From assembly GCF_013167455.1 (NCBI RefSeq), contig NZ_CP038328.1: a stretch of DNA of 64,000 bases; one strand, written 5' to 3'. The DNA is from Escherichia coli O157:H7 (GTDB taxonomy: Bacteria > Pseudomonadota > Gammaproteobacteria > Enterobacterales > Enterobacteriaceae). This document shows positions 60,001-64,000 of this stretch, in pieces. The first letter of the stretch is position 1; each line of letters opens with the position of its first letter. Made by a program: the position numbers.

Positions 60001-63000
60001 GGCTATCTTTTCGAAGGCGTTCTCTGACTCTGTTTGCATAGCTAGCTTTTGCTCTTTTCGAACCTCACTAGGGTTCTTTCCTTCTGCCACAAGTTTTCGA
60101 GCTTCATCACGACGGGAACGAGCATCGGCAAGGGTGATCGTTGGGTAAACACCAAGCGAGATCATTTTGGGTTTGCCGGCATAGCGATAGCGGAACCGCC
60201 AACTCTTGCTTCCATTAGGTTCTATAAGTAATGACAACCCTAGCCCATCTCCAAATGTATAGGCTTTAGCTTCAGGCTTAGCGCGGCGAATCTGCATATC
60301 GTTTAAAGGCATGTGTATAGGAATCCAGACCGAACAGGAACATATACACAATCCTATACACATTCAGTACCGGATTCTACTGGATGGTTACGGACTACTA
60401 TGGACTTAAAAGAATAAAAAATGTTATAAATCAGAGATTTTATGGACTAATACGGACGTTTGAGGAAGTTGAGATGGTGCCGATAATAGGAGTCGAACCT
60501 ACGACCTTCGCATTACGAATTATAAGAATCCGCTTCTAATTCAAAGCATTACCCCATCAACACTGCGCTCACACGTCCCACCACATCAAAACATGTAAAG
60601 CCTTGCAAGCCATTGCGAGGCCTTATGTGTCTCAGTTTTGTCCCACCTTGTATTACGACTTGCATAGCCAATGAAGATAAACGTGACGACAAACGGCGCA
60701 GCAGTCTTCTTTTCTTTCACGACTTCTCCAGCATGCATACCTTTCTGCCATGACTGAAGTGAATGCCTGTTATGAGCGAGGATTGGCCCAGATGAATCGC
60801 CCTGGACTGTTGCGATCGTGAAGCCATAGACTGGGCCGCAAGCACGGGAGGTTACGATAAAGCGACAGTGCAGGATGTCATGTTAGGAGCGATAGAAAAA
60901 CGCTTTGGCGATAAAGTACCGGAACAGTCCATCCAGTGGCTGACAGATAACGGTTCAGCGTATAGAGCGCATGAAACACGGCAGTTCGCCAGAGAGTTGA
61001 ATCTGGAGCCCTGCACAACGGCAATCAGCAGTCCTCAGAGTAATGGAATTGCAGAAAGGTTCGTGAAAACGATGAAGGAAGACTATATCGCGTTCATGCC
61101 GAAACCGAATGTAAGAACGGCATTGCATAATCTTGCAGTGGCGATCGAACATTACAATGAAAACCATCCGCACAGTGCGTTGGGTTATCGCTCTCCGCGA
61201 GAATATCGACGTCAGCGGGTAACGTTAACTTAAGATACACCCCCTGTCTGGAAATAAGGGGGCAAGAACAATGATCAGATTCCCTGGTGAGTAAGAATTT
61301 TACTTTCTGAACTCCTCTGAGAGTATTGACTTGGAGAAACACCAAAATAACGTCTAAATACATAAGTAAAGTATGAGACACTGGCATAACCACAGACCTT
61401 AGCTACTTTACTAATAGGATAACAACGAGTGCTGAGTAAATATTCAGCCATTTGCATCCTCTCATCAAGTATGATCTTACTGAATGATACCCCCTCTTCT
61501 TTCAATTTCCTCTTTAGTAAACTTTCGCTGAGATATAATCTTGATGATATATCCTTAAGACGCCATGGTGCAGATAAATCCGTATGAATAATCGTTTTAA
61601 CTTTAGCCCCTGTGCTTTTCAAACATCCAAACAGAAATACTCCAAATTGTTTTTCAGAAGAAAATGCAGAGAGACATGTAAAAGCAATAGACTCATCAAA
61701 AATTTCTATGTATTCAGCACAGTGATTAGCCCAACTAATTAATCCTTTAATTAAACTGAAGTCAGCAAAGTTTATTTTTAAATAAGATGGATATTCCCTA
61801 CAATCAGAAATATCCCTTAAGTTATTAGCTTTCAAATAGCGACTAATAAACTCAGCGCCAAAATCCGCCACTATCACTCTTTCAGGATATGTCAGGAAAA
61901 AATCTCTAGAGCTAGAGTCGACAAGTACAGATGAACCTCTCTCCAGAAACACACTCTCTTTTCCGAAATAAACATCAAAGGACTCCAAAATCAATATAAC
62001 TGAACATGTAGTTGCCATATCATCCACCCAATTTAACTGAAACCAGGATGAAGTATATGTATATAAAGTTCACTTTGCCAAACTTCAGTATAAAAAACCA
62101 CTAAAAATAGGGTGTGATAAAAAATACCGTAACAATAAAGCAAAGGATTATAAATTCCGTTACAGTTACAAATGATACTCAAGAAACAATTCCTTAGGAA
62201 AAACTTATTTACAGCCAATAAGTAAGACACTTATATGATATCAAGTTTTCATAAAACATAACTAGGCTAAATAGCTGCGCCTAATACCGCTACACTTTTG
62301 CCAGCCCATGTTTGCCTCCGGGTATTGACCCCTTCTCTACGCAACTTCAGTTCCCACCACCAACTTTGCGGCAGCTTTGTAGGATCAATGTCTAAAAGAA
62401 TAATGGTGACCGATAAGAAAACGACTGAATAACTGCAGATTTTCGCTCGAAACCTTCCTGTCAGATCCATAGCGAATCAAGTGCTGAATGTCACAGTATC
62501 GAACAGAAAACAGTGACGATCTAACCCTTCAAGAATATTCTACGATTGTTCTGTTTAGGAAAAGCAAGGCGGGAAGTCGGGAGATAAGTCATTGATAAAG
62601 TGGCGGAGAGAGGGGGATTTGCCCCCCCGGTAGAGTTGCCCCTACTCCGGTTTTCGAGACCGGTCCAATCATCAAACGAAACATAAAATTAATTCACATT
62701 ATGAGGAAAAGTATCTTTTTTGTACTATGTAAATTCAAAGACTTAGCCTCATTTCCCCGATGATTTTCTCAACACTACTGGTTGTGAGCCCTTGCAATGT
62801 TCATTAATATACGTCTCACGAATAATTCATAGATATTGCAAAATGGATATTACTGAGTTTCCTTCTGGAGTAATTGAACACCTTGGCTGGTATGTATACC
62901 GATTGATTGATCCGAGGGACGGAAGCACCTTCTATGTAGGGAAAGGCAAAGGTAACCGCGTATTTGCCCATATGCGCGGTGAAGTGGCAGCGACTGATGA

Positions 63001-64000
63001 TGACGAGTTACTGAGCAACAAGCTAAAGCAAATTAGAGAAATAAGGTTAGCAGGACTTGAGGTTATCCATGTCATCCATCGACACGGAATGACTGATGAA
63101 AAGACGGCGTACGAAGTCGAAGCAGCACTTATTGATGCCTACCCTGGGTTAACGAATATCATGAATGGTGCTGGCAGCAATGAATTCGGCGCCGCGCATG
63201 TCAAAGAGTTGATAGCAACATATCAACCCGAAACCATAACATTTCATCATAAAGCATTAATGATTTCCGTTAACAGAAGTGCAAAGGATTCAGAGCTTTA
63301 TGATGCGGTTCGATTTAGCTGGCGCATTAATGTCTCTCGCGCCAGCCAAGCAGAAGTCATTCTTGCTACTGTAAGGGGGATCGTTCGAGGGGTTTTCATT
63401 GCTGATAAATGGCTCAAATCAACACGTGAAAATTTCCCTACGATGAAATACTGGGACGAGGATCCGGACTTTGAGGCAACACAAAGTTCTCGCTATGGTT
63501 TTGAAGGTCGAGAAGCCCCACCTGAAATAGCAAATCTTTATCTTGGAAAAAAAATACCAGATGAATTAAGAAAAAAAGGAGCTATGTCCCCGGTCCGTTA
63601 CTCACCTAATTTTTGAGTCTTTAAGTGATAAGCATAAACCGCAGCACGATCTTCTTGCATACGACGTGCTACGGTTTCATTTATCTCCGACCGGAAACTT
63701 CTTATACAGTGTCGATATACCAACATCATAGATGATCGCCACCTTTTGGCGAGGAACGCCTGATGCAATTAATCGCCCGGCCTGCGCCCATTGTTCTGGT
63801 GTAAGTTTGGGACGACGTCCACCAATTCGTCCCTGTGCGCGAGCTGCTTCCAGTCCAGCTTTTGTTCGTTCAACAATCAGTTCACGCTCCATTTCAGCCA
63901 GGGCACCCATCACATGAAAGAAAAAGCGCCCCATTGGGGTACTGGTATCAATTGAATCCGTCAGACTACGAAAGTTGATGCCTCGTTCGCGCAACTCCTC

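Follow-up and report, generated by a model that had tools for sequence, protein, structure and literature searches.

The two genes that close a 64,000-nucleotide stretch of Escherichia coli O157:H7 DNA (here called the window), one for a GIY-YIG protein and one for a Pin-like DNA invertase, are very probably independent and already characterised modules, the former cargo and the latter for host range, at the far end of the prophage at thrW (Sp1 in strain Sakai, CP-933H/OI-8 in strain EDL933). Both genes are already known: judged from its sequence, the GIY-YIG gene encodes CMoRE (PD-T4-3), an enzyme characterised in this same serotype to the level of crystal structures, and the invertase gene is pinE. 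The initial annotation of this DNA had placed such a pair at the window edge, and both genes were confirmed there:

62843–63616, plus strand: CMoRE/PD-T4-3 gene, an intact open reading frame (ORF) of 257 amino acids, with the nuclease domain N-terminal and the predicted sensor of 5-hydroxymethylcytosine (5hmC) and its glucosylated form (5ghmC) in the C-terminal ~140 residues
63677–64000, minus strand: 3′ part of pinE (residues 78–184 and the stop codon); the gene runs on to a position equivalent to 64231 of the window

Positions 62400–64000 are 100% identical to many O157:H7 chromosomes, and the last 21.6 kb of the window are 99.99% identical to strain FRIK944. The DNA past the window edge was viewed via FRIK944 (record L001), in which window position equals L001 position + 42399 in this region.

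The GIY-YIG gene and CMoRE

A domain search on the GIY-YIG protein, as the initial annotation had proposed, identified it as PD-T4-3/CMoRE over its full length. The PADLOC profile PD-T4-3 (PDLC04031) matched with an E value of 2.4e-140 (residues 1–256 against positions 1–255 of 256 in the model), and phrog_5356 also matched full length. Pfam recognised LEM-3_GIY-YIG at residues 28–110 (E 2.1e-14), and no NCBIfam family was found. The closest structures in the Protein Data Bank, 9U75 and 9U8D, aligned over residues 1–257 (E 3.7e-172) with 253 of the 257 residues identical (98.4%); the chains of 9U7U and 9U7Z were ∼85% identical. The crystallised sequence of 9U75 is that of Sakai ECs_0285, and the window protein differs from it by four substitutions (window to 9U75: T51A, E55D, Q169K, and N197H), of which only those at 169 and 197 lie in the C-terminal half.

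This enzyme of O157:H7 was studied by Liu et al. (Nat Commun 2026), who renamed it CMoRE and described it as a type IV restriction endonuclease (PMC12923530). Expressed from its native O157:H7 promoter in strain BL21, it protects ∼10^5-fold against T2, T4, and T6, and does so directly rather than by abortive infection (PMC12923530). Its substrates, which it binds and degrades, are DNAs with 5hmC or glucosyl-5hmC; DNA with cytosine or 5-methylcytosine (5mC) is spared. Cleavage by the tetrameric enzyme follows the pattern CN11/N9G with little sequence specificity at the site, leaves 2-nt 3′ overhangs, and requires two modified sites (PMC12923530). The GIY-YIG nuclease resides in the N-terminal domain and has an additional tyrosine (Y17, Y19, Y31) as well as an acidic lid loop, whose neutralisation renders the enzyme toxic. 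Binding of 5hmC, through a main-chain contact at Y127, is the task of the C-terminal domain, which has a new fold; V92 and L96 are residues of the dimer interface (PMC12923530). The family was first discovered as PD-T4-3 in strain ECOR68 (Vassallo et al. 2022). When defences were deleted in the native host, PD-T4-3 was among only two active ones of a natural isolate (10.1101/2024.12.20.629700), and a distant homologue is likewise modification dependent (PMC12366544).

All residues tested in that work (Y17, Y19, Y31, R80, V92, L96, and Y127) are present in the window protein. The GIYxY-YIG motif, read from the translation, is G15-W16-Y17-V18-Y19 followed by F30-Y31-V32-G33, and the acidic run at residues 52–55 reads DDDE in the window and in the APEC O1 protein, and DDDD in Sakai. 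Thus, the full-length profile match, the three-tyrosine motif, the acidic loop, Y127 together with V92 and L96, and the single-gene architecture that define the family were all found. The initial annotation had noted an unrecognised C-terminal region of ∼200 amino acids; this proved to measure ∼140 amino acids and to correspond to the crystallographically defined 5hmC-sensing domain of CMoRE. A housekeeping GIY-YIG protein (UvrC N-domain or YhbQ type) was considered and rejected: there was no NCBIfam match, and the gene is far from universal, occurring at ≥95% identity in 837 of 5,426 complete E. coli genomes. Wherever a CMoRE locus was examined, its context was that of a mobile element.

O157:H7 carries two CMoRE alleles with ∼96.5% identity in DNA and four amino acid differences (window 62843–63616 compared with Sakai record L011, 11505–12278). 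The crystallised allele is found in Sakai with its deleted Sp1, the other in the window and in strains FRIK944 and FRIK2455 with a long prophage. The window allele would be expected to act like the crystallised one, from which it differs at four positions. If so, the C-terminal domain of the tetramer would bind 5-hydroxymethyl- or glucosyl-hydroxymethylcytosine, upon which the N-terminal GIYxY-YIG nuclease would cleave the DNA in the published pattern (CN11/N9G, 2-nt 3′ overhangs), with the acidic lid loop sparing unmodified host DNA. Incoming DNA of T-even phages would be destroyed directly, without abortive infection.

Full-length CMoRE homologues with 38–47% identity also occur in lytic jumbo phages (250–285 kb) of Serratia, Pectobacterium, Pantoea, Klebsiella, and Pseudomonas. 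They retain Y17, Y19, Y31, R39, E93, N105, Y127, and the C-terminal domain and lack the run of four acidic residues; examples are those of Serratia phage Moabite (L009, 2501–3265) and Pseudomonas phage OBP (L010, 2492–3253), which are annotated as homing or GIY-YIG endonucleases. They might serve as weapons against competitor phages containing hmC.

The words "prophage" and "jumbo" are absent from the main text of PMC12923530, and the genomic context given here is not in that text; a literature search under the locus tags ECs0285, Z0318, and Z0319 returned unrelated papers only.

Pin and its invertible tail-fibre segment

The part of PinE encoded in the window (its C-terminal 107 residues; the N-terminal 77 fall outside) contains the end of the Resolvase N-terminal domain (PF00239, model positions 87–144 of 145, E 6.6e-19) and the helix-turn-helix domain HTH_7 (PF02796, E 1.7e-13), and matches the DNA invertase family phrog_125 (E 4.9e-97). 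In O157:H7 genomes identical to the window over 62400–64000, pinE is complete at 184 amino acids; its truncation is due to the window edge alone. The complete protein is identical to PinE of the K-12 prophage e14 at 174 of 184 residues (95%), the DNA being ∼93% identical, and contains the catalytic Ser9 in the context VRVSTN.

Beyond pinE, one strand carries a gp53-like fibre end and a tfa gene, and the other strand tfaE and a tail-fibre gene. The search for inverted repeats near the invertase that the initial annotation had called for yielded two 26-bp crossover sites in inverted orientation beyond the window, TTCTCCCAAACCAAGGTTTTCGAGAG and TTCTCCCAAACCAACGTTTAAGAAAA (L001, 21888–21913 and 23779–23804), which are ∼1.9 kb apart, identical at 21 of 26 positions, and share the central AA. 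Their 19-nt cores are identical to both borders of the e14 P segment; zero such matches are expected by chance. The ∼1.9 kb between the sites hold alternative tail-fibre ends and their assembly genes. In the present state, a fibre of 256 amino acids is encoded together with tfaE. When the segment was flipped in silico (cut at the centres of the sites), an in-frame fibre of 220 amino acids and the other tfa resulted, the N-terminal 101 residues being common to both fibres.

Both junctions were then looked for in all complete E. coli genomes, counting matches with ≥80% coverage. The flipped junction was found in 74 genomes and the other state in 512. O157:H7 strains that match the window exactly across the nuclease/pin region have the flipped junction at 100% identity and at the same distance from pin. 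Inversion thus occurs in natural O157:H7 genomes, and the presence of both orientations at 100% identity indicates that the switch operated recently in this lineage. The inversion is probably driven by the Pin of the thrW prophage and not by a paralogue elsewhere. The claim that the invertase controls an adjacent invertible segment was therefore borne out, with the segment past 64 kb on the far side of pin; the invertase is neither a fragment nor devoid of sites, and its neighbour belongs to no housekeeping family. No crossover-like site was detected in the whole 64-kb window, even with three mismatches allowed, which places the nuclease gene outside any invertible segment.

The Din family comprises Pin with Gin of Mu, Cin of P1, and Hin of Salmonella. 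Of its hallmarks, a catalytic domain with Ser9 and a helix-turn-helix, paired inverted sites, in-frame alternative fibre ends, and inversion were observed here. As a member of this family, PinE would recombine the two inverted 26-bp sites and flip the ∼1.9-kb segment, thereby joining the constant 101-residue fibre N-terminus to either of two C-termini, each with its own assembly chaperone. The flip would amount to a host-range switch of the phage.

The prophage end inside the window

In FRIK944 and FRIK2455, the DNA beyond pin encodes baseplate, tail sheath and tube, tape measure, HK97-type head, portal, terminase, lysis, regulatory, and replication functions. This prophage of ∼36 kb, in which one baseplate gene is frameshifted, has an integrase gene that abuts the tRNA-Thr gene thrW. 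In Sakai, Sp1 is a 10.6-kb remnant, with pseudogenised integrase and replication genes, that keeps the fibre, tfa, and pinE genes, ECs_0285, a single gene for an AraC-type regulator, and an IS3 fragment; the P4-like element Sp2 follows it in tandem. The window most likely continues into the long form, because its nuclease allele is not that of Sakai. The features of the prophage end are as follows:

60474–60520, minus strand: 47-nt copy of the thrW 3′ end (att repeat), with the Sp1/CP-933H-type prophage to its right and the P4-like Sp2 to its left; border according to the Sakai annotation
60799–61233, plus strand: partial IS3-family transposase (integrase core, N-terminus missing) according to the RefSeq annotation of FRIK944 and Sakai; ORF 60868–61233
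61275–62027, minus strand: AraC-family regulator gene (Pfam HTH_AraC and HTH_18), AT-rich
62323–62592, no strand assigned: fossil of the chromosomal DNA directly downstream of serU (about 270 bp, from a base-by-base alignment with K-12)
62593–62666, minus strand: 3′ 66 nt of the tRNA-Ser(CGA) gene serU (anticodon stem to CCA), in which the T-loop carries two substitutions; a fossil attR-type junction
62667–62842, plus strand: region upstream of the nuclease gene, which moves with it as part of a cassette and is conserved in strain H2
63627–63685, no strand assigned: hairpin that separates the convergent genes and extends into the final codons of pin; the shared nuclease cassette has its right border here

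The att repeat corresponds to the thrW 3′ end in reverse complement, and a copy with 100% identity adjoins intF at the distal end of K-12 CP4-6 (L007, 1210–1256). The identical repeat at the Sp2 integrase and at CP4-6 intF shows that both strains share thrW as an integration site and have used it serially. The initial annotation was right in assigning the pair to an integrated element that continues past 64 kb (∼36 kb in FRIK944/FRIK2455, 10.6 kb in Sakai) but not in regarding it as a separate element lying beyond a tRNA-Ser-like scar, since, by the Sakai annotation, the prophage extends to the left as far as 60474–60520. The scar itself is a genuine serU 3′ fragment; it is not a boundary of the present prophage, which is integrated at thrW. 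The collection of phage sequences contained no close relative of the nuclease (best match 45% identity), so that the prophage end could not be defined from a sequenced free phage.

From its position and family, the gene at 61275–62027 is probably patE (z0321/ECs_0287). z0321 encodes the AraC/XylS regulator PatE on OI-8 (PMC10877973) and has been described as a CP-933H regulator (PMC2907692); PatE is an RpoS-dependent, prophage-encoded activator of acid resistance and a repressor of genes of the locus of enterocyte effacement. The AraC gene and the IS3 fragment resemble the IS3–ykgA junction of K-12 in being IS3-adjacent; this candidate was rejected, because blastn found only the thrW repeat.

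Nearly all E. coli genomes have a serU locus with ∼97% identity to positions 62323–62666. The homology breaks off on the left at ∼62323, adjoining the region of the AraC regulator, and ends at ∼62666, where phage-type DNA begins. ARAGORN called no tRNA gene in the window, as would be expected with a mere fragment of serU. Permissive Rfam searches gave sub-threshold matches to the plastid psbI-rps4 3′ untranslated region and to tRNA-Sec, both on the serU fragment, and a weak one of the hairpin to the 3′ hairpin of the Shigella small RNA CssrB; all three were judged to arise from the tRNA fragment and the hairpin and not from RNA genes. The fragment is oriented as an attR, with its phage side toward the nuclease gene, and this orientation makes it a prophage end that formerly belonged to an element integrated at serU. 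A serU-type prophage end has thus reached the thrW prophage, bringing along some of its bacterial flank.

The nuclease gene also occurs in strain H2, in a different prophage beside a type II restriction–modification (R-M) system. The cassette common to both extends from inside the serU anticodon stem (∼62647) to just past the hairpin (∼63677) and holds this ORF only, the other neighbours being different. The hairpin is conserved in H2, without pin, and homology ends after it. It has a fold energy of −19.8 kcal/mol on the plus strand (z −2.45) and −25.8 kcal/mol on the minus strand (z −4.39), and, being terminator-like on both strands without a T-run, is a putative terminator. Together with the serU fossil, the sharp borders of the cassette suggest that whole prophage ends, not just genes, have been exchanged between prophages at different tRNA genes.

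Next to this prophage, P4-like Sp2 carries a decayed Lamassu system at ∼55852–59127 on the minus strand (L001, 13452–16728), between the integrase and the psu/delta genes. LmuC is intact and LmuB is in three ORFs; LmuA is in two ORFs in FRIK944, and in the window an indel near 59083 divides the N-terminal one once more. RefSeq labels these genes "ABC-three component system" and "AAA family ATPase".

The slot beside pin

In e14 of K-12, pin is followed by the gene for the type IV restriction enzyme McrA and then by the attachment site, and McrA occupies the pin slot in strain PF9285 too. CMoRE is found in this slot in the non-O157 strains AR_452 and LD26-1, either alone or together with a type II R-M system. 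Such a pair, a cytosine-5 methyltransferase and an endonuclease (frameshifted in H2), lies beside CMoRE in H2 (L003, 3919–7774) and in LD26-1 (L016, 1–3443); the combination fits the reported indifference of CMoRE to 5mC. In O169:H41, in O55:H7 strain CB9615, and in the canine strain UPEC957C, the slot is occupied by small unrelated proteins (L012, 1462–2999; L014, 2449–3421; L015, 2355–3413), for which PADLOC gave no match and Pfam only Bflower ("4-fold beta flower") and DUF2335. Occupants without an assigned function include WP_157774360.1, WP_001288816.1, and WP_042043824.1. The slot survey covered few genomes. The variety of occupants indicates that adjacency to pin reflects a variable cargo slot beside a conserved phage module, not a functional pair.

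More speculatively, the stretch from pin to the attachment site in e14/Sp1-type prophages could be a hotspot of cargo swapping enriched in anti-phage genes, with prophage ends being exchanged and the jumbo-phage homologues of CMoRE serving as weapons; we consider this wider picture possible but rather unlikely to hold. If the slot is a defence hotspot, the small proteins without matches could be new defence genes.

Points against and alternative explanations

Several observations weigh against the assignment of the two genes to characterised modules of the thrW prophage. The nuclease differs from the crystallised protein at four positions, two of them in or beside the autoinhibitory loop. A consensus promoter scan gave no plus-strand site above threshold upstream of the nuclease gene; a weak sigma-70-like candidate (TTGTGA, 17 nt, TAATAT at 62782–62810; 8/12) was read by eye only. 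Likewise, a consensus scan detected no canonical intrinsic terminator, the hairpin being passed over because it lacks a T-run. A degenerate scan for the Fis consensus in the 5′ part of pin, where a Fis-dependent recombinational enhancer would be expected, gave scattered matches of 5–6/6 among which no pair with the right spacing stood out; the enhancer is probably conserved, the DNA being ∼93% identical to that of e14 pinE. The orientation polymorphism is evidence at the level of populations and does not identify the acting invertase, and O157:H7 has other pin-like genes (in up to three places per record). Finally, the content beyond 64 kb is deduced from genomes with a sequence identical to the terminal 21.6 kb of the window.

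It is very improbable that the two genes are mere leftovers of a decayed prophage, idle in this strain. The state of the prophage would fit: Sakai Sp1 is a remnant of 10.6 kb with pseudogenised integrase and replication genes, even the long form of FRIK944/FRIK2455 has a frameshifted baseplate gene, and the IS3 fragment and the serU fossil testify to a history of rearrangement. However, neither ORF is disrupted or lacks a catalytic residue, and CMoRE of Sakai confers ∼5 logs of protection from its native promoter (PMC12923530). Furthermore, the segment is found in either orientation at 100% identity in O157:H7 isolates, which points to recent inversion, and the nuclease gene has been kept at ≥95% identity in the 837 genomes mentioned above.

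Slightly less probable still is that the two genes form one unit, in which the invertase switches the nuclease on and off as a phase-variable defence, or the nuclease assists recombination. Recombinase-driven phase-variable restriction systems are known in other bacteria, the genes are separated by a gap of only 60 bp, and their adjacency recurs in AR_452 and LD26-1. Against this, the window contains no crossover-like site with three mismatches allowed, and the two sites, located across pin from the nuclease gene, bracket tail-fibre genes only. The two genes are convergent with a hairpin between them; CMoRE occurs without pin in H2, and pin occurs elsewhere with McrA or unrelated cargo. CMoRE alone works from its own promoter in BL21 (PMC12923530), and no evidence for a functional link between nuclease and pin was found.

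Least probable, and largely refuted already, is the idea that the GIY-YIG protein acts as a homing endonuclease, free-standing and selfish, which spreads its own gene by cutting cognate sites without it: despite weak similarity to PHROG 314, labelled "homing endonuclease" (E 0.0021), the annotation of full-length jumbo-phage homologues as putative homing nucleases, and movement of the gene between different prophages as a discrete, sharp-bordered cassette, knock-out, heterologous expression, in vitro cleavage, and crystal structures demonstrate modification-dependent restriction of T-even DNA, the C-terminal domain is a 5hmC sensor without a DNA-binding Pfam domain rather than a sequence-specific DNA-binding module, cleavage shows little sequence specificity, and there is no intron or intein context.

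With the two genes understood as separate modules of the thrW prophage, a gene labelled "hypothetical" or "LEM-3-like GIY-YIG" would become a named defence enzyme of known mechanism, and the invertase is explained as a tail-fibre host-range switch, not as a regulator of nearby cargo. A defective or semi-defective prophage of O157:H7 would thereby give its cell immunity to T-even phages, which is of relevance to the biocontrol of O157:H7 with T4-like phages. The slot shared with McrA, the serU fossil, and the two orientation states add modest context and no new principle.

Comparison with known systems

The closest known counterpart of the nuclease is CMoRE of Sakai (ECs_0285; 9U75, 9U8D), which shares with the window gene the locus, serotype, motif, acidic loop, Y127 sensor, and single-gene architecture. 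It differs by the four substitutions and by residing in a 10.6-kb remnant, whereas the window belongs to a lineage keeping a prophage of ∼36 kb.

McrA of e14 (EcoKMcrA) belongs to the same class of modification-dependent enzymes acting on cytosine-modified DNA and occupies the same slot between pin and the attachment site. The two are nevertheless built differently, with an HNH nuclease fold in McrA and a GIY-YIG fold in CMoRE, and with unrelated sensor domains. McrA targets 5mC and 5hmC in sequence context. CMoRE ignores 5mC and accepts glucosylated hmC (PMC12923530).

The invertase module corresponds to Pin and the P segment of e14 in the protein (95% identity), the 19-nt cores, and the position at the end of a prophage beside a cargo slot. 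The gene order, ymfQ, tail fibre (stf), and tfa on one side, and tfa, fibre C-terminus (stf′), and pin on the other, is common to e14 and O157:H7. The variable fibre segments and one tfa differ, and e14 is integrated at icd, the O157:H7 prophage at thrW. In the slot after pin, e14 carries McrA, co-directional with pin, and O157:H7 carries CMoRE, convergent with it.

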